64,000 bases of DNA, taken from IMG/VR virus record IMGVR_UViG_3300025368_000001, one strand, 5' to 3'. A program made the translations under genes and the position numbers. Origin of the DNA: an uncultured virus (IMG/VR IMGVR_UViG_3300025368_000001) (lineage: Duplodnaviria > Heunggongvirae > Uroviricota > Caudoviricetes). Numbering within the stretch: the stretch's first letter is position 1; each line of letters begins with the position of its first letter. Below are positions 20,524 through 33,036 of the stretch, in pieces. The notes beneath the pieces are model-generated. The model was not told the DNA's origin and ran no database searches. It saw nothing but the letters and a program-made list of their open reading frames with translations.

Positions 20524-21234
20524 ATGGCAGTTGATATTGAAAAATATCTAAGGGTTTTAAAGAGTAGGGGCATCACTAAAGGAGATGTTGCTGCCGCTTT
20601 GAGCATAACTCCTTCATATTTATCAAAAATTATCAGTAACGAAAAGCCACTGACTGATACTATACTTAAAAACCTTACAGCAGAATTTGGCAGCTATGAA
20701 GAAGTGGTAGACAAAACCCCTCCTGAGCCATACTACCGAAAAAGACTTGAATTAAAAAACACCGAAAATCCTCGAACCGTGAAATTGTATAACTCTAGTG
20801 TGGCAGCCACGCCGAAAGCCGGAAACGGAATGGCAGTTACAAACAAAACAGACTATGTAAACATCTATGACGTATTGGGTAAATGTGACTTCGCTTTGCC
20901 TGTAAGTGGGAATAGTATGATGCCTAATTATCCACCTTCTAGTGTGGTCGGAATGGTAAAGAAAACAGATTGTAAAATAAGACCAGGAGAAGTCTATGTA
21001 GTGGAAACGGCTGACGAGGCTGTACTGAAAAGACTATACTACAAAGAAGATGATAGTAACAGCGAAATACTTGTTCTGATCTCAGATAACACTATGGTAA
21101 TTGATAGCGGTGCCAGAAAAGGGATGTTAGCCTATCCGCCTTATGAATTACACATAAAAGATATAATAGGGCTGTATAGCGTCACCGGAAGCGCAAAGAT
21201 TATGTTGTATGGTAAAAGGATGATTGAATTATAA
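20524..21234 (+). CDS. CI-like repressor (XRE HTH + S24 peptidase)
   Basis: ITKGDVAAALSITPSYLSKII; VSGNSMMP (catalytic Ser); VLKRL (catalytic Lys); LISDN. Confidence 0.9.
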   Translation: MAVDIEKYLRVLKSRGITKGDVAAALSITPSYLSKIISNEKPLTDTILKNLTAEFGSYEEVVDKTPPEPYYRKRLELKNTENPRTVKLYNSSVAATPKAGNGMAVTNKTDYVNIYDVLGKCDFALPVSGNSMMPNYPPSSVVGMVKKTDCKIRPGEVYVVETADEAVLKRLYYKEDDSNSEILVLISDNTMVIDSGARKGMLAYPPYELHIKDIIGLYSVTGSAKIMLYGKRMIEL

Positions 21235-21243
21235 ACTATCAAT

Positions 21244-21489
21244 ATGAAAAAGAAACTTACTTACGGCGTATGCGCAATCATTCTGCTACTCGTTCTGACA
21301 AACCCCACCATGAGGGATTTTAAGGAGAATCAGGGTATAGTAAATGATGTTATGACATATACTACTCAAACGAATAAAGAATCGAATTTCTTGCTGTTTA
21401 GCGTGTTCGCAACAAATCATTATTTGAACAACCACGATGTAAGAGTAAAATATATCGGCATCTTAAAAAACTTTTGGAAAATAAACTAA
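21244..21489 (+). CDS. Membrane-anchored protein (DUF4359-like); immunity-region accessory
   Basis: N-terminal TM plus TNP, NFLLFSVF and YIGILKNF motifs. Confidence 0.6.
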   Translation: MKKKLTYGVCAIILLLVLTNPTMRDFKENQGIVNDVMTYTTQTNKESNFLLFSVFATNHYLNNHDVRVKYIGILKNFWKIN

Positions 21490-21494
21490 ATATT

Positions 21495-21791
21495 ATGACA
21501 CAACCATTCGGCGAACTACTTAAAAAGTACAGAGAAAACAACGGTTTAACTCAGATAGATTTAGCTGAGAAGCTGGGCGTTACGCAACAAAGTATTGTGT
21601 ATCTAGAGAATAGGGATTACGTTAAACCTTCAACCAAAAAGGATATTGAAGAAAAGATTGGCTTTAATCTCGATTCATTGCTTCCGGGTAACAGCGCTTT
21701 TAAAGATGCAAAATACTATCAGAAACAAGCGATAATTTACAAAGAAATGCACGACCATTGTACAAAGATGGCTAAACTGTTGGGAGGGTAG
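21495..21791 (+). CDS. XRE-family HTH regulator
   Basis: GLTQIDLAEKLGVTQQSIVYLE. Confidence 0.85.
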   Translation: MTQPFGELLKKYRENNGLTQIDLAEKLGVTQQSIVYLENRDYVKPSTKKDIEEKIGFNLDSLLPGNSAFKDAKYYQKQAIIYKEMHDHCTKMAKLLGG

Positions 21792-22220
21792 CTATGCAAG
21801 TTTACCCTCTCTCCTTAATTGAGTGTATCTCTCTTGCAATTTTTTATCTCTAGCCGTTAGTTTACTTTTTCTTACTATTCTTTCCATACGGGTTTCAACT
21901 TTCTTTTTAGGTTTATTGGGGTTCTTCTTTTTTCTAGTACGTCTTTTATTGGGCAATATCGGGGCGTACTTTATTTTATCGCTACCAATATTATGTTCTT
22001 TTTGGTGACAAGGACGGCAAAGCGTTATTAAATGCTTATCGGGGCTTTCCCACGCCATTTTACCTTTTATATATTTTTTGTGGTGGATTTGTAGCCTTGT
22101 TTTATTCCCACATTTTTTGCAAGTGTAATTATCCCTCTCTAGTATTTGTAATCTCCTAGCTTTCCATTCAGGAGTTAGTAATTGTTCTTTATAGGTTAAA
22201 CCTTTTTTTACTTCTGTCAT
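21792..22220 (-). CDS. HNH endonuclease with basic C-terminus
   Basis: ERDNYTCKKCG, LQIHH and LITLCRPCH motifs; encoded on the minus strand (track label is wrong); TACTTTTG promoter at 22228-22235 implies a near-leaderless mRNA. Confidence 0.85.
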   Translation of the reverse strand: MTEVKKGLTYKEQLLTPEWKARRLQILERDNYTCKKCGNKTRLQIHHKKYIKGKMAWESPDKHLITLCRPCHQKEHNIGSDKIKYAPILPNKRRTRKKKNPNKPKKKVETRMERIVRKSKLTARDKKLQERYTQLRREGKLA

Positions 22221-22280
22221 AGCATAACAAAAGTACAAGTAAAAACAAATAAAAAACAATCTTTTGGCTGTATTTTCTTT

Positions 22281-23402
22281 TTAATTCAATCTATCCATAA
22301 TCTTTTTACTCAAATCAATATTGCTTATCTTGGCGTATATTCTAGCCGTCTGAGGCGTATCCCCCAACATTTCTGCAACTTCATCTACCGTAAACCCTTT
22401 TGACATCATCATCATTGCAAATGAATGTCGGGCGGTATGGAATTTCACATTCTTGTTAATCCCTGCCAGCTTTGCAATCGCTTTAACGTGTTCCCGAACC
22501 TTTTGTTCCGATTCAGTCATTTTATTCTTGGATACATATTCGAGTATTGGCACTAACTTGTTGTAAATAGGGATAGAAACGATTTTGCCGTTTTTTTTAG
22601 CCTGTAAAGTAACTTGGTTATCCATTACCCTTTTACTTACATCGAACGTCAAACAATCGCTTATCCTATACCCTAAGTAGCAAGATAGCAAGAAGTAATA
22701 CCCTGCGTTTCTCATTTCGGGAATATTAACCCCGGCTACTACCTTCTCGAAGTTTGCCACCTCTTCTTCAGTAAGATAGTCCGGCATCGTCCTTTCAGAT
22801 TTAGGGTTGATGTATTTTCTGAACGGATCATCTTTGATATAATCCTTTTTCATAGCATGGTTTATAATAGCCTTTAGGAGTGCCATATTCCCCTTTAAAG
22901 TGTTCCGAACTATTCCTGTATCCATTAAGTATCTTTCAAAGGAAATTACCCACTTATAATCAATTTCTGCAAGCCTGGTCCTATCGTCATAATCCTTTAC
23001 TTTGTCGGACATAACTTTATAATGTTTTAGCCGTCCTTCTGATAACTTCCCTGTAAGCTCTTGAATTAAGTCCTCAATGAAGTTTGTTAGTAGTCCAGAT
23101 GAAGTGTCTATACTATCGCCGGAAACAATTTTCTTTAGTATCTTCTCGGTGATAGGTATATCCTTTCGCATACACTCTAAAATATTACTTTCGATATTGT
23201 TTGCAATCGACTTTATGATGGCGTTTAACTTCACCTTTTCTTTATGCCAAACTACATTCCCGTTCTTGAAATTATCGGTAGGGAGTTTGATGCCAGTGGC
23301 CTTGTACGCCTTTAGTTTGTTGTTAATTACCTGAATTGAAATGCCGTGACAGCCGTTTTTGTCGGCATAACCCATTAGAATAGGCTTGACTGAATATCCC
23401 AT
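22281..23402 (-). CDS. int: Tyrosine integrase (Arm-DNA-binding + SAM-like + catalytic domains)
   Basis: GYRISD, K, HTARHSFA, LGD and IYAK catalytic motifs; Bacteroidota-type N-terminus. Confidence 0.95.
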   Translation of the reverse strand: MGYSVKPILMGYADKNGCHGISIQVINNKLKAYKATGIKLPTDNFKNGNVVWHKEKVKLNAIIKSIANNIESNILECMRKDIPITEKILKKIVSGDSIDTSSGLLTNFIEDLIQELTGKLSEGRLKHYKVMSDKVKDYDDRTRLAEIDYKWVISFERYLMDTGIVRNTLKGNMALLKAIINHAMKKDYIKDDPFRKYINPKSERTMPDYLTEEEVANFEKVVAGVNIPEMRNAGYYFLLSCYLGYRISDCLTFDVSKRVMDNQVTLQAKKNGKIVSIPIYNKLVPILEYVSKNKMTESEQKVREHVKAIAKLAGINKNVKFHTARHSFAMMMMSKGFTVDEVAEMLGDTPQTARIYAKISNIDLSKKIMDRLN

Positions 23403-24168: not shown

Positions 24169-24636
24169 CTATCTACCCCCAATACTATCAATTTGCCAAA
24201 AGACGGTTGCGCTATCCCAATGTTTTGAAGTACCTATGAAATACTTGCTTATCAGTCCGCTTGTAACATCTTCGCCAAACAACCCAATTAGGAACGTAAC
24301 AAAGTGGTTTGCTTCATATCCTTTGAGGCTACTTTTAAACACATCCTTTGAGATATAAGAAACGGGGTTAGCTGGTGCAATTGGTTTGGGCTTGCTGTAC
24401 TGTTTCGGCTGTGGTGTATCAAATGAAATATTGTTATCGGTAAAATATTGCTTGGGTGTGTAATGATAACCGCAATTGCTCTCACGGTTGCACCTACCGA
24501 CATTGGGGGCAACGTGTAAGCCTGTTTCCTTATCAATGTATAGGGAAAGGGTTCTATCCCTATGGTTGCAACTTGGGCAACGGTAACGGGTGTTTATTCC
24601 CTTGTATGGCTCTAATATGTATCTATGTTCGTTCAT
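24169..24636 (-). pseudogene. Truncated DUF6371-like (zinc-ribbon, primase-associated) gene of a Bacteroidota integrative element
   Basis: YILEPYKG..CPSC..VGRCNRESNCGYHYTP..FWQID, then a stop where homologs, as recalled, continue. Confidence 0.7.
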
Positions 24637-25702: not shown

Positions 25703-25764
25703 ATAAGCCGTTTACCGCTTTGCTTTTCAATTGTGATTTGCTTTCAGTGGGGATAGGGTTAAAC

Positions 25765-26553
25765 CTATCCCTTTATTTTTGCGTTAATAATTCTAAACAC
25801 TTTCCAAAAATCGCTTTCAATCTTTTCTTTACCGTTTCGATTAATTAGGGCTACAAAAGCTTTGCTTTGGGCTTGACTTTTCTCAAGTCCAGGAAGCACT
25901 CTAGCTTCTTTCGCTTCTTCGATAAAGGTGTCGTCTATTACTATCGTTTCTGCTTCTGTAATCACTTTCGCCTCAACGTTTAATTTGGCTTGCCTTCTCA
26001 GCTCTTCTTCTATTATTACCTGTTCTCTTGCCTTAGCTTCGCACTTTTCTTTGTAGTTGATGTATCTTTCGATAACTTCAAAGGGCTTCCCCCTGCTGTC
26101 TGCTAATTCTTGTATGGCTTCTTTTCTCGTATCGAAGAAGATAGGGGCATTCCAATTTTTATTTTGGATATAGTACTCAAAATGCTCGTAAAGGTCTATT
26201 TCTGCGTATTCTTCAGTTGGATGGCTTGTTAGTTTTCGGGGATTATTGCCGCCTGTTCCCCACGTCCAAACTTCCCACATAGTCTTTACGTTACTCATGA
26301 TAGTATCTTGGTTTAATCCCTTTCTTTGGCAATAAAAGAAAGCCTCATCCTCGTTATCAAAATCCACCCCCTCTACTAAATAATTATTGCACTCGACCTC
26401 TCTGATATGTATCCTAGGCTCTACACCTCTGGGGCTTGTCGTTTCATCGCCACCATAGTCTCGTAAGTAGTCACGATATACTACTTCTTCAATACTCATA
26501 TCGCTAGTGTTAGCGATGTAACCTTTTTCGTTTAATCTTTCAATTGTTAACAT
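25765..26553 (-). CDS. Hypothetical early protein
   Basis: 262-aa ORF. Confidence 0.7.
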   Translation of the reverse strand: MLTIERLNEKGYIANTSDMSIEEVVYRDYLRDYGGDETTSPRGVEPRIHIREVECNNYLVEGVDFDNEDEAFFYCQRKGLNQDTIMSNVKTMWEVWTWGTGGNNPRKLTSHPTEEYAEIDLYEHFEYYIQNKNWNAPIFFDTRKEAIQELADSRGKPFEVIERYINYKEKCEAKAREQVIIEEELRRQAKLNVEAKVITEAETIVIDDTFIEEAKEARVLPGLEKSQAQSKAFVALINRNGKEKIESDFWKVFRIINAKIKG

Positions 26554-28159: not shown

Positions 28160-28519
28160 TTATCTTTTATCGTATCCTGCAACGTGCCACCATTTAACGC
28201 TGTTACTTGCACAAGTACCGTGAATATTTGCGCCACTGCTGCACCCTGCAAACATTATAGCCATAGCTGCCAATACTATTAAAAGTATCGTTTTTATTGC
28301 TTCAGTATCCTTTTTTATTCTTGTCGGTATTTTGCGAAGATTGTAAGGGATGGCATCTAAACCCCATTCAAAACTAAAACCAATTGCCTTACATTCTGCT
28401 TGCATTTGCGTTAATTGTTCGTAGTTTATATCTTCGCCATATTCGCTAGAATAATAGTCTAAAATTGCCTGTAAATTAATTGGCAATGTTTCCTGTACTT
28501 CGAATAAATCTACTGTCAT
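28160..28519 (-). CDS. Hypothetical early protein with C-terminal hydrophobic/lipobox-like segment
   Basis: DLFE..LP..GFSFEWGLDAIPYNLR followed by ILLIVLAAMAIMFAGC. Confidence 0.6.
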   Translation of the reverse strand: MTVDLFEVQETLPINLQAILDYYSSEYGEDINYEQLTQMQAECKAIGFSFEWGLDAIPYNLRKIPTRIKKDTEAIKTILLIVLAAMAIMFAGCSSGANIHGTCASNSVKWWHVAGYDKR

Positions 28520-28599
28520 AACTTTTGCATCTTTAAGGCTGCCGCCTGTTGTTTTATGTTAAAAAATAGGCAGTTTTGAAGCTCTGCCAACTTAAGATG

Positions 28600-28989
28600 C
28601 TAGTTAATTTCTTGCAGTTCTTCAATCTCGTTATCGTCCCAAATTCTTTGCACCCCCGCATATTCTTTTAAAACCGCCTTGTAAGTCTTAAATGCTTTGC
28701 GGCTGTCCTCGTCATAGCCAAACTCGCTGCAAAAGTTCTCAAACGTTCCAACCTCATACTTAGTCAAGCAGGCTAAAACATCATAGGGAGTAGGTTCTAT
28801 CCCGTTATTTGCGATACTTTGCCCAAACTTAAACGAGAAACTTTTTTTACCTCGCTGTAGCCTAATTTGGTAAATGTCCCGACACTGTTTATCATCTTCA
28901 AAATAGAAGTCGTGTTCTAGATAAGAACAACTAAACTGAACGCCCGTTTTCTTTAAAAAATTTACTGCCCGTGATTGATATTCTGACAT
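28600..28989 (-). CDS. Hypothetical early protein
   Basis: PTPYDVLACL..FENFCSEFGYDEDSRKA motif typical of phage early genes. Confidence 0.75.
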   Translation of the reverse strand: MSEYQSRAVNFLKKTGVQFSCSYLEHDFYFEDDKQCRDIYQIRLQRGKKSFSFKFGQSIANNGIEPTPYDVLACLTKYEVGTFENFCSEFGYDEDSRKAFKTYKAVLKEYAGVQRIWDDNEIEELQEIN

Positions 28990-29032
28990 AATATTTCGCA
29001 AGTCTTTTATACAGTGCTGCCTCTGCTTTAAT

Positions 29033-29088
29033 GGTTAAGACGGGTATTTTTCAACCCGTTTCGAATATTAAATTCTCGTCAGTTAACC
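29033..29088 (-). ncRNA. Type I hammerhead ribozyme
   Basis: GGUUAA CUGACGA GAAU-UUAAU-AUUC GAAA CGGGU-UGAAAAAU-ACCCG UC UUAACC: complete catalytic core, three perfect stems and GUC cleavage triplet. Confidence 0.92.
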
Positions 29089-29453
29089 TATTCTTCATTT
29101 TCATCAACCAGCACAACATCAAAGCAGCGTGGGCAGTCTAAAATATAATCCGCAATACTTGACAAGTCAACATATTCAACGGGATTATTAAAACTTTCAA
29201 CGTTACCATAGCCGTTTAACTTAACGTAATCATCTGATAAGTTATAAGTCCCGTAACAAACAGAACGGATAGCATCTATTTTAGTGTCAAAACGAACATT
29301 AAAAAAATCTTCATTATTTTGGAAAATAATACCATCGAAATCATTAGAAAGTTCGCAATAAATATCGTTTGCTTGCACCAATTCACTAGCGGTTAAATTT
29401 TCTAAGTACTCAATAACTGCTTCTTTTGTGTTTAAAATTTCTGTATGTATCAT
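29088..29453 (-). CDS. Acidic hypothetical early protein
   Basis: Probable start MIHTEIL; GTYNLSDDYVKLNGYGNVES motif. Confidence 0.7.
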   Translation of the reverse strand: MIHTEILNTKEAVIEYLENLTASELVQANDIYCELSNDFDGIIFQNNEDFFNVRFDTKIDAIRSVCYGTYNLSDDYVKLNGYGNVESFNNPVEYVDLSSIADYILDCPRCFDVVLVDENEE

Positions 29454-29530
29454 TTTATTATGCGTGTTGATTTCTTGCCGCCGCAAGGGGTTAAATGTTA
29501 TAAATATTGTCATTCTTTCGTTAAGACGGT

Positions 29531-29564
29531 GTAAAAGTAGGGAAAGCATTTTAAATAAAACAAA
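29531..29564 (-). promoter_or_regulatory. Putative early promoter
   Basis: TTTG -33 box and TACTTTTA -7-like box 21 bp apart, upstream of the early operon. Confidence 0.5.
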
Positions 29565-29744
29565 TAAATCTTTGTAATCTTCAAAAAAATAGAAAACATT
29601 TAATAAAATAGCACATTCATTAAATAAAATCTAATAAAACGCCGTCAAACTGAATGGAATAAACCGACAATTTGAAAAGCAGATGACGAAAACAACTGGA
29701 TAAAAACAGATAAAAAACAGATGAACGGAAACCAGGAAAAGGCT

Positions 29745-30113
29745 TTATTTATCGTGTCGGGTTCTGCGGAGTTGTGCTTCGAATTGTTGCAGGATGTGCA
29801 CGCCTTCCGGAGTGATAGACCAAAGAAACTGAACCTTATTAAGTGGCTGTAATATTTTGTCTCTTTTTTCAACATACCCAAAAATCTCTAACTTGCTGAG
29901 ATAGTCTTTAACATATTCGTGATAAAAGCCATAGCCCCAAAAATTAAGAACCTTTAAAATTCTTTGTGTTGGCTTATCTGCACCTGAATGATTAACAGCG
30001 GAAAGGACATTGATAAGTGTGAGGTTTAATCTAGGTTTATTTATTTGCGACTTGTTTAAAATCTTAATTGAACGGTTTACAGTATTTATTTTATGTAAAT
30101 TCTGCAATCTCAT
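29745..30113 (-). CDS. Winged-helix-like protein
   Basis: YLSKLEIFGYVEK..WSITPEG, MarR-like pattern. Confidence 0.55.
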   Translation of the reverse strand: MRLQNLHKINTVNRSIKILNKSQINKPRLNLTLINVLSAVNHSGADKPTQRILKVLNFWGYGFYHEYVKDYLSKLEIFGYVEKRDKILQPLNKVQFLWSITPEGVHILQQFEAQLRRTRHDK

Positions 30114-31106
30114 TTGTTTTAAATTTTTGTCACTTTGAAAGAAGTAGAAGGTATTTATTTGCGTATAGTGTGAGAGGTTACCTCGCAAATGTACCTGCAC
30201 GAAACAGAAACGGGGCAAATTTCGAAGATAACCCAAAAGTAAGGGAATTATACCTAAAATGAATTAAACGGTCTAGAATCGCCTTGAAATAAGAATTACT
30301 GTTTTTAGTGTTTTTTGCCATGATCTGAAAGTTATTAATAAAGTTCTGTAATAGTTCTGTAATTTCCCGTAAAAATATCCTAACTGCTTAATTATCAATG
30401 ATTTATGTATAACGGTGCGAATTGTAGCACAATTATTTGCTTTTGATGGTAGGCTTTTGGTGCTGTGTCCTGCTGTGGAGTAGCCCCAAAATCTGAATTT
30501 GCCAAAAGTGTAGGCACTCGATTGATTGTTTGCCGTTTCCCCTTCGCCGCACCCACCCGCCCGAATTAGACGTTACCCCATTCCCCAACCCCCACAAAAA
30601 ATAATAATCTCAACATCAACCACTTAAAATATCTCTTTGGAATCATTAAAAGAACTGATGCAAAGTTATAGGGTAAAATTAGATACAGACAAATATTTGT
30701 TTAGTCCGTATAATTTGCAACGATGATGCAAAAATAGTATGATACTTTTTAGGTATTAAAGATGTTGTTGATGATACCTTTTGAGTATGAATAAATGCAA
30801 CTATGTTGCAAAAATATGTTGTTGTTGTAAATGTCGGCTGATTTTAGTACTTGAAAATCTATACTTGTCACTGGTGACAACAATAGAATTGCTAAAAATT
30901 CCTCTGAAACTCAATGTGGGTAAGGCTTTCAGAGGATTGAAAAGCGTTTTAAAAAATGTATATTATATATATATATCGAAAATATTTTCTCAATTTTGGC
31001 TTGAAACCCATACTGGGCTTATCATATGATAGAAATAATTAATTAGCATTGGTGACAAGTTTAGCAAAATATGCAATAATTGCACGTTTGTTGAATTATT
31101 TAATAT

Positions 31107-32503: not shown

Positions 32504-33036
32504 TGAGAGTATTTATTGGGATTGATGTTGGCAAACAAGGTGGGATTGTTTTGATTAAGGATAATGGTGTTATCGAGACTTTTAAAACGCCATTGGTAGC
32601 CAACGAAATTGATTTGAATGAGATTATGTCGATGATTGGATCATATAGTGATGTGATTGTAGGCATTGAGAATGTGGCAAACATATTTGGTTCATCTAGT
32701 AAGAGTAACTTCCAATTTGGCAGGGCTTTAGGGTTAATAGAAGGGCTTATTACAGGCATTGGGCTTCCATTTGTTAAGGTGCATTCTAAGGTGTGGCAAA
32801 AACTAGCTTTTGAGGGTATTCCCGTTGTTTATAAACCAGGTAAAGTTAAAGTTAATAAGAAAACGGGCGTATCAGAGGAAACAAAGAAAGTTGATACTAA
32901 GGCTATGGCTTTACTCGCTGCTAAGAGACTGTATCCTAAAGTTAATTTATTGGCTACTGAGCGTTCTAAAATCCCACATGATGGCATTGTTGATAGTTTG
33001 CTTATTGCGCATTACTTAAAACAAACTAATAAATAA
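32503..33036 (+). CDS. RuvC-like Holliday junction resolvase
   Basis: IGIDVGKQGG, IENV, FGRALG, WQK and DGIVDSLLIA motifs. Confidence 0.85.
   Translation: MRVFIGIDVGKQGGIVLIKDNGVIETFKTPLVANEIDLNEIMSMIGSYSDVIVGIENVANIFGSSSKSNFQFGRALGLIEGLITGIGLPFVKVHSKVWQKLAFEGIPVVYKPGKVKVNKKTGVSEETKKVDTKAMALLAAKRLYPKVNLLATERSKIPHDGIVDSLLIAHYLKQTNK

Follow-up and report, generated by a model that had tools for sequence, protein, structure and literature searches.

What does a self-cleaving RNA do between two small genes of a phage? The question is raised by a 64,000-nt stretch of DNA (hereafter the window) from an uncultured virus of the Caudoviricetes (IMG/VR record IMGVR_UViG_3300025368_000001), in which the minus strand from 29088 to 29033 reads directly as a complete type I hammerhead ribozyme lying between two genes, here called gene 1 and gene 2. 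Reviews still treat what self-cleaving ribozymes do in bacteria and phages as an open question (PMC6155905, PMC6765202). Both the hammerhead class and the idea that it processes phage messages are already known, and the window's single copy adds little alone; we analysed it together with its relatives.

Anatomy and setting of the ribozyme

The original prediction had described a complete type I hammerhead on the mRNA strand that starts at the TAG of gene 1, is cleaved after GUC between 29039 and 29038, and leaves a 3' product starting 49 nt before the next ATG; each of these points agreed with our reading of the sequence (Table 1). Stem I has 6 bp (29088-29083 with 29038-29033), and its first base, 29088, is the G of the gene 1 stop codon (29090-29088). 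Stem II has 4 bp (29075-29072 with 29066-29063) and a 5-nt loop II (29071-29067), and stem III, which begins at 29058, has 5-6 bp and runs into the cleavage triplet GUC at 29041-29039 of the minus strand. All consensus core positions were matched (C3, U4, G5, A6, N7, G8 and A9; G12, A13, A14 and A15; U16 and H17), the three helices were correctly paired beside the core in agreement with covariation in relatives, and stem I is open and stems II and III are closed by loops, which is the topology of type I. Hammerhead cleavage yields 5'-OH and 2',3'-cyclic phosphate ends, and the predicted cut (29039/29038) lies 49 nt from the ATG at 28989. By sequence and structure the element is a real type I ribozyme for which cleavage is predicted, and we consider it very probable that the window copy is active.

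Table 1. Coordinates of the ribozyme and of neighbouring features in the window.
Feature	Position	Strand	Basis or remark
Type I hammerhead, whole	29033..29088	-	Sequence, fold, descriptor, covariance model
Stem I 5' arm (2.6-2.1)	29083..29088	-	Sequence and ORF end
Core C3-A9, CUGACGA, consensus	29076..29082	-	Sequence against the consensus given in PMC3088659
Stem II and loop II	29063..29075	-	Loop with family U1, A3, U5
Core G12-A15.1, GAAA	29059..29062	-	Sequence
Stem III hairpin	29041..29058	-	Sequence and fold
Predicted scissile bond after GUC (C17 = 29039)	29038..29039	-	Established hammerhead chemistry
Stem I 3' arm (1.1-1.6); would become gene 2 RNA 5' end	29033..29038	-	Sequence
A1.7, probable tertiary partner of last loop II base U29067	29032	-	Covariation in relatives
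A2.7, the A of TAG; possible partner of first loop base	29089	-	Conservation
Gene 1, 121 aa, phrog_4534 of unknown function	29088..29453	-	ORF list, PHROG match
Gene 2, 129 aa, phrog_4273 of unknown function	28600..28989	-	ORF list, PHROG match
Weak hairpin/pseudoknot candidate in gene 2 leader	28998..29026	-	Third copy of local leader motif
Gene 2 start region able to pair with core and stem II	28983..28998	-	Competing predicted fold
Candidate Bacteroidota-type promoter	29532..29564	-	TTTG at 29564, -7 box at 29539; pattern match
Terminator-like hairpin and U run after gene 2	28561..28588	-	Sequence and fold

The bare core pattern without stems was not above chance in the window (21 matches versus 11.8 expected). 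With its stems, the structure descriptor matched this site alone in the 64 kb of both strands, and dinucleotide shuffles contained an equally good site in 0/600 cases and a looser one in 4/600. A covariance model built from 80 other family copies, whose E-value calibration is rough, scored 29088-29033 at 60.1 bits (E = 2.6e-13), and the next site in the window reached 10.4 bits. Neither the descriptor nor the covariance model found a second type I copy in the window, and descriptors for type II and III hammerheads had no match there. The scan with Rfam hammerhead models that the original prediction had offered as a check came out negative: no hammerhead family of release 15 matched at the gathering score, no hammerhead model matched at E ≤ 10 in 28500-29700, and RF00163 (Hammerhead_1) gave no match on the matching record, where its threshold of 34 bits was not reached. 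Two weak Rfam matches in 28500-29700 were rejected as chance-level.

For the isolated 56-mer, the minimum-energy structure was the three-way junction (z = -2.0; 9/200 shuffles as stable). Under an energy model that leaves out tertiary contacts, the probability of stem I was 0.91 with 8-nt flanks and 0.00-0.14 in naked RNA with at least 30 nt upstream or 60 nt downstream; in longer context it also fell below 0.3 for 76 of the 136 relatives among the matches listed. The cost of the ribozyme fold was near the family's highest, 7-27% of members among the matches listed being equal or worse in longer contexts. The coding end of gene 1 (29110-29104) can pair with 29038-29032 and so displace the stem I 3' arm (probability 0.85, in one context, naked RNA).

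The ribozyme sits within a run of small minus-strand genes without assigned function. Gene 1 probably starts at ATG 29453, the longest ORF starting at 29549, and for genes 1 and 2 there was no Pfam family and Atlas scores were below 0.9. The element had been placed between the first two early genes. It does lie between two genes, but 'first' and 'early' are matters of interpretation because a further ORF (29745-30236) lies upstream of gene 1 on the same strand; no solved relative was found for ORF 29745-30113. Relatives of gene 1 occur mainly in Bacillus phages, several of them within terminal repeats, a location that fits an early gene. The candidate promoter upstream of gene 1 has one mismatch in its -7 box relative to the consensus, and the hairpin after gene 2 falls outside the terminator scanner's rule because its loop is 10 nt; together the two suggest a two-gene message. 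Counts of sigma-70 promoters (37 versus 26.3, sd 4.9, in shuffles) and of terminators (7 versus 5.4) were not used. On the plus strand, a strong hairpin with a T run (25749-25772) lies inside the minus-strand early cluster and could halt antisense transcription.

The 41 window proteins scanned include an integrase, a CI-like repressor, a primase, a terminase and a portal protein. Of 88 phage records matching the terminase, 86 were named for Flavobacterium, Cellulophaga, Tenacibaculum or Maribacter, with 24-30% identity in the rows displayed. Because of the integrase, the CI-like repressor and this terminase kinship, we infer that the source is a temperate phage of Bacteroidota. The integrase and CI-like repressor stand alongside a terminase and portal that are kin to Elemovirus, Pachyviridae and Pervagoviridae, and alongside a weak match to a crAss muzzle domain (20524-23402 and 40960-61204); the phage is apparently a temperate member of that wider group. 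Near the integrase, a minus-strand ORF (24169-24636) encodes a zinc-ribbon domain followed by the first 42 of the 150 positions of DUF6371 and looks truncated. Close relatives of gene 1 in metagenomes numbered 0 of 84 candidates, the protein at 33036 matched only a 100% identical record, and gene 2 relatives were limited to nine distant loci and the identical record, so that no close relative of the locus was found.

A phage family with a covarying, probable docking pair

The window ribozyme reads as one ordinary member of a large and uniform phage family defined by a 6-bp stem I, a 4-bp stem II and a 5-nt loop II, and its core, stem and docking positions all agree with that family. A viral scan in which the window copy's stem II was fixed returned 24 loci, one of them identical to the window. 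A second viral scan fixed A2.7, G2.6, the core and the loop pattern, and G10.1-C11.1 was the only stem pair fixed on both sides; of 150 distinct sequences among the matches listed, 142 formed complete type I ribozymes. In 140 distinct bodies from this listing, C1.6 and A1.7, which the scan had left unfixed, never varied, and the free stem pairs covaried. With the loop and 2.7 left free, 129 of the 152 matches listed were complete type I ribozymes, and the 23 excluded by stem filters included some type II/III or long-stem copies. The two viral scans overlap and are not independent, exact duplicates and nothing else having been removed. Stem covariation scored 0.825 versus 0.165 when shuffled and at most 0.103 when slid, in rows preselected for pairing. 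The genome collection yielded 61 matches, of which 46 were complete, from bacterial and archaeal assemblies of many phyla, mostly metagenomic. At least 265 distinct family copies were present in the loci examined. Among cultured phages, Flavobacterium phage elemoA 1-9C carries an intact copy with a 28-nt leader, whereas in Flavobacterium phage elemoD (L366) stem II of the copy is broken, which shows that decay of the element occurs; the pattern was absent from four of five distant cultured or sequenced terminase relatives.

The genomes examined also contained sequences beyond this pattern. In elemoD (L366:4211) and elemoA (L373), a second hammerhead-like core of different topology lies directly 5' of the first gene of the rightward cluster and overlaps a short leader. 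Nitrosopumilus chromosome assemblies (L305, L322, L338, L348 and L363) hold family-like copies, some with an imperfect stem I and, in two assemblies, two per genome. Intact copies in Daejeonella and Mucilaginibacter (L309, L346, L321, L362 and L365) are followed by structured-looking sequence with no nearby ATG and may trim non-coding RNAs. A second hammerhead-like group (L185, L245, L274, L299 and L172) has the same core spacing, loops starting with CAG and no type I closure, and probably belongs to type II or III.

Within the family, base 5 of loop II covaried with base 1.7 (U-A 104, G-A 11, A-U 9, other 5; n = 129 among the matches listed). Mutual information for this pair was 0.39 versus at most 0.08 for the other 29 pairs among the matches listed; the corresponding Fisher p of 1.5e-12 overstates the case because the sequences are related. 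The A-U cases were spread over eight stem types, and loop II base 1 was U in 128/129, base 3 was A in 122/129 and base 2.7 was A in 127/129 of the matches listed. With U29067 at loop base 5 and A29032 at 1.7, the window copy has the swapped U-A form. In the Schistosoma and sTRSV ribozymes, the last A of loop II makes a Hoogsteen contact with U1.7, and O'Rourke et al. proposed that an A(loop II)-U1.7 contact is sufficient for fast cleavage (as described in PMC11875169). We infer that the covariation marks a tertiary base pair of A-U1.7 geometry, mostly in swapped form; docking of loop II onto the outer part of stem I, as in tertiary-stabilised hammerheads, is supported by covariation. The UNmYN/RNmA contact needs a loop that begins with a purine and ends with A, and the window loop begins and ends with U; a final A was found in 10 of the 129 relatives among the matches listed. 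Also rejected as the family contact was a 5-bp pseudoknot between loop II and the tail, which the window copy could form (29071-29067 with 29032-29028) and which was possible in 1 of 140 relatives among the matches listed. Four to five Watson-Crick pairs between loop II and tail were possible in 15 of the 140, and a Perreault-type pseudoknot of at least 4 bp is not a feature of the family.

No description of the subfamily, the swapped pair or the array behaviour was found in the literature covered, which was mainly open-access; the type I alignment in Dataset S1 of Perreault et al. may list members. Within that literature, the docking signature of the subfamily and the behaviour of its arrays are possibly new. 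The notion that a U-N-A-N-U loop on an A-A-capped 6-bp stem I constitutes an undescribed minimal docking motif, taken jointly with the interchangeable stem I arms discussed below, is one that we regard as doubtful. Structural studies of hammerheads, like the design of compact ribozymes, gain a simple prediction from the swapped pair.

Placement, probable message splitting and rival explanations

The family is placed between a stop codon and the next start codon. Among the matches listed, 115 of 134 copies are followed, 6-60 nt past the cut, by the ATG of an ORF of at least 40 aa (random positions, 0.29), and the median distance from cut to ATG is 26 nt, or 27 nt in leaders with a Shine-Dalgarno-like motif and 23 nt in those without. 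Leaders of at least 49 nt occurred in 2 of 115 relatives among the matches listed, and the 49-nt leader of the window is atypically long. In 106 of 137 cases among the matches listed, the stop of an upstream ORF falls between -10 and +14 relative to C3 (control 0.081); because this overlap occurs at several different offsets, it looks like compact packing and not like a fixed coupling. At the nine loci with gene 2 relatives, type I hammerheads precede other genes and not gene 2 (2/9 loci), so that the element is not gene-specific, and the genes that flank family copies vary. In the window, too, the ribozyme is on the sense strand and is flanked by small, variable phage genes. What remains constant in the family is the predicted new 5' end of the downstream gene. 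In 16 of 138 copies among the matches listed, the post-cleavage 3' arm refolds into a 5'-terminal hairpin (shuffled tails, mean 4.6, maximum 13; swapped tails, mean 3.9, maximum 9), as expected if the predicted hairpin protects the new 5' end in a subset of the family; the window copy forms no such hairpin.

Because the family sits between a stop codon and the next ATG, its placement supports the protein-independent processing of a polycistron, which the original prediction had proposed and which is our best reading. The accompanying proposal that cleavage serves to uncouple gene 1 fared less well, the evidence favouring the 5' end of gene 2 in that the distance to the ATG is held and tracks leader type and the flanking genes vary. 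We consider it reasonably probable that an active type I hammerhead acts here as portable punctuation that splits gene 1 from gene 2 and supplies gene 2 with a 5'-OH leader. The core, the three stems and the docking bases are intact in the sequence. After transcription, once the ribosome leaves the gene 1 stop, loop II would dock beyond stem I through the pair U29067-A29032 and perhaps U29071-A29089, as suggested by covariation, and docking would lead to fast cleavage at cellular Mg2+. By established chemistry, the gene 1 RNA would then finish in a structured tail whose 3' end is a 2',3'-cyclic phosphate, and the gene 2 RNA would begin with a 5'-OH and a 49-nt leader. The downstream gene would gain a defined 5' end, free of upstream RNA and ahead of the ribosome-loading site, and with the candidate promoter (29564-29532) and hairpin (28588-28561) the cut would turn a two-gene message into two single-gene messages. 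RNase E and RNase G favour 5'-monophosphate ends (PMC3014915); a 5'-OH would be a poor substrate for enzymes of this type, so that expression of gene 2 could become independent of its neighbour.

Cutting of long phage transcripts into gene-length mRNAs was proposed in 2011 by Perreault et al., whose paper reports cleavage of tandem phage hammerheads in vitro and in vivo and inactivity of 4 of 18 consensus hammerheads in their assays (PMC3088659). The present family provides many natural replicates with a fixed layout and without Rfam annotation, and the 2011 hypothesis is directly testable because elemoA 1-9C, which is cultured with a known host (Flavobacterium sp. BAL314), has an intact copy. 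Message splitting at this locus has points against it, namely that longer naked RNA is predicted to favour other folds, that the leader is atypical, that a terminal hairpin is not formed, that a 5'-OH can also hasten decay, as for glmS in Bacillus (PMC3328962), and that inactive consensus hammerheads (the 4 of 18 above) and a decayed copy in elemoD are on record. Against misfolding, ribosomes would mask the upstream competitor and transcription would deliver the ribozyme first, but the window copy is among the worse ones.

The length of the leader has a local explanation. The leaders before the ATGs at 29453, 28989 and 28519 (29487-29462, 29026-28998 and 28547-28527, minus strand) share a GGCRGC hexamer and, 7-8 nt upstream of each ATG, a YGC; the two strands of the window together hold 35 such hexamers, so that its presence at similar spacing in three consecutive leaders is unlikely to be chance, albeit noticed after the fact. 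The leader before 29453 draws as an H-type pseudoknot of 5+3 bp (1/400 shuffles as good) and that before 28519 as one of 4+3 bp (16/400 shuffles), and the two sister copies differ by one compensatory change. The leader 29026-28998 is the weakest of the three: the pseudoknot that had been placed in the 3' product can be drawn there, but 34/400 shuffles score as well, and a strict pseudoknot descriptor accepts the first and third leaders and refuses this one. Across 1.63 Mb of strand from relatives' loci the strict descriptor gave 10 matches, and among the matches listed none lay between a family ribozyme and its ATG. With a weak pseudoknot in the window and none behind relatives' ribozymes among the matches listed, the suggestion of a combined ribozyme and pseudoknot expression module was not borne out. 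A viral scan for the leader motif returned at least 86 distinct matches, mainly chance, and no wider family; among the matches listed, four had an extended stem and a nearby ATG, two of these coming from the window itself, and the presence of the extended stem brought no improvement in loop-to-tail pairing. We conclude from these comparisons that the leader motif is a local repeat and not a conserved partner of the ribozyme, and that it explains the 49-nt length. DUF805 (RF02914) and DUF805b (RF03081), considered as identities of the leader element, had no match at those places; the matching record holds three sub-threshold RF02914 matches elsewhere and none to RF03081. Between genes 2 and 3, a long helix on the minus strand (28600-28527) surrounds the terminator-like hairpin and forms in competition with the third pseudoknot's second stem, and it could couple translation of genes 2 and 3 because its 5' strand starts at the gene 2 stop.

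Arrays of the ribozyme raise the strongest alternative. Up to seven family copies occur in one locus and many genomes have several among the matches listed; the at least 265 distinct copies formed 78 adjacent same-strand pairs in 42 arrays, 108-1117 nt apart. Among the matches listed, 56 of the 78 pairs showed full pairing between the 3' arm of the upstream copy and the 5' arm of the downstream one, compared with a mean of 16.1 and a maximum of 25 in a control with partners drawn from other arrays and matched for G+C and leader class, whereas stem II was cross-compatible in 23/78 (control mean 14.6, maximum 24). Where stem II had diverged, stem I remained compatible in 39 of 55 pairs (control 12.5), and when the two commonest arms were dropped as well in 13 of 24 (control 1.8, maximum 8); with one pair per array the stem I-compatible fraction was 0.67, all among the matches listed. 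The retained compatibility of neighbouring stem I arms suggests something beyond plain cutting. Interchangeable arms might be selected for circular, gene-sized mRNAs, in which the 5'-OH arm would dock into the cyclic-phosphate-ended core of the next copy and be re-ligated, or for cassette shuffling, in which DNA crossovers inside the ribozyme would swap early-gene cassettes and leave a working chimera, the window copy being the remnant of an array. Tertiary-stabilised hammerheads are described as ligating far faster than minimal ones (PMC6155905), which counts in favour of this reading. Ten bases of the cleavage context (29043-29034) recur on the minus strand at 29529-29520, just past the candidate promoter of gene 1, but this repeat was chosen after the fact and may be a remnant or chance. 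Set against selection are the 22 of 78 incompatible neighbours among the matches listed and the consideration that, if stem I changed more slowly than stem II once a copy had duplicated, the same pattern would arise without it. In addition, among the 18 loci that matched stem II and had a model match, 8 show one strong copy (at most 3 kb a side, often to a contig end), and Perreault et al. report that spliced or circular products were sought in phage arrays and none was found (PMC3088659). Because the window has one copy, its own unit cannot circularise, and we judge selection for interchangeable arms to be unlikely here. If true, arrays could close single early genes into exonuclease-proof circular mRNAs, since each cut yields a 5' arm that fits the next ribozyme core, or could swap cassettes.

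Somewhat less likely still is that cleavage triggers decay of the downstream RNA and so times the shut-off of gene 2. There are precedents in the attack of RNase J1 on the 5'-OH product of glmS in Bacillus (PMC3328962) and in T4, where RegB cuts and then phosphorylation by polynucleotide kinase precede decay (PMC3014915), and the window copy is cut near a start codon without a protective terminal hairpin. The family cut, however, spares the ribosome-loading region (median 26 nt before the ATG and tuned to the leader, among the matches listed), unlike that of RegB; a subset of the family does form a terminal hairpin, and no kinase family was found among the 41 window proteins scanned.

A switch specific to this copy, in which the core and stem II would pair with the gene 2 start region and gate both catalysis and translation, perhaps coupled to translation of gene 1, seems improbable to us. 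With 60 nt of downstream sequence the lowest predicted energy belongs to the competing helix and lies 4.7 kcal/mol below that of the fold constrained to form the ribozyme, a difference reached by 10% of 138 relatives among the matches listed, and a ribosome terminating on gene 1 would sit over the 5' arm and the core. But the ribozyme would be completely transcribed 35-50 nt ahead of the competitor, and no close relatives of the locus were found; a chance helix is plausible because both partners contain the same AT-rich palindrome. That the element is an inactive or neutral passenger in a mobile early-gene cassette is highly improbable: the unfavourable predicted folding in context, the decayed elemoD copy (L366) as against the intact elemoA copy and the lack of the pattern in four of five distant cultured or sequenced relatives would suit it, but a complete family match at core, stems and docking positions is improbable after long neutral drift.

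Comparison with known systems

Message splitting, our preferred reading, can be compared with several known systems. The window copy has the same catalytic class and topology as Rfam RF00163 (Hammerhead_1), although that model leaves it unmatched. In function, an engineered parallel is the RiboJ type of synthetic insulator, a hammerhead ahead of a ribosome-binding site that strips upstream RNA and leaves a 5'-OH. RiboJ stands directly after the promoter and has an added hairpin, whereas the window copy is natural and intergenic and overlaps a stop codon. The Bacillus glmS ribozyme is alike in self-cleaving upstream of a coding sequence to give a 5'-OH (predicted here), but it has another fold, needs a metabolite and triggers decay (PMC3328962); no ligand site is evident in the window copy.

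Among phage hammerheads, the HHphage element of haloviruses HF1 and HF2 is found 13 nt upstream of the start codon of an early gene, and a 5' end has been mapped close to its cut; the hammerheads described by Perreault et al. in 2011 flank single phage genes, three arrays being shown to cleave (PMC3088659). Like the window family, the latter lie between genes on the mRNA strand, have small variable genes as neighbours and often form arrays, but as described there they use a pseudoknot of at least 4 bp or the UNmYN/RNmA contact (PMC3088659), unlike the window family with its fixed geometry (6-bp stem I, 4-bp stem II, 5-nt loop II) and single covarying pair between loop II and 1.7. The Sm-alpha and sTRSV ribozymes and the construct of O'Rourke et al. 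share with the window copy the core and, probably, the meeting of the last loop II base with position 1.7 (PMC11875169). Their A-U1.7 form is found in 9 of 129 family members, and the window copy has the U-A1.7 form of 104 of 129 (among the matches listed); the family further differs from them in a 5-nt loop II with near-invariant U1 and A3 and in a stem I that opens after 6 bp at an A-A juxtaposition.
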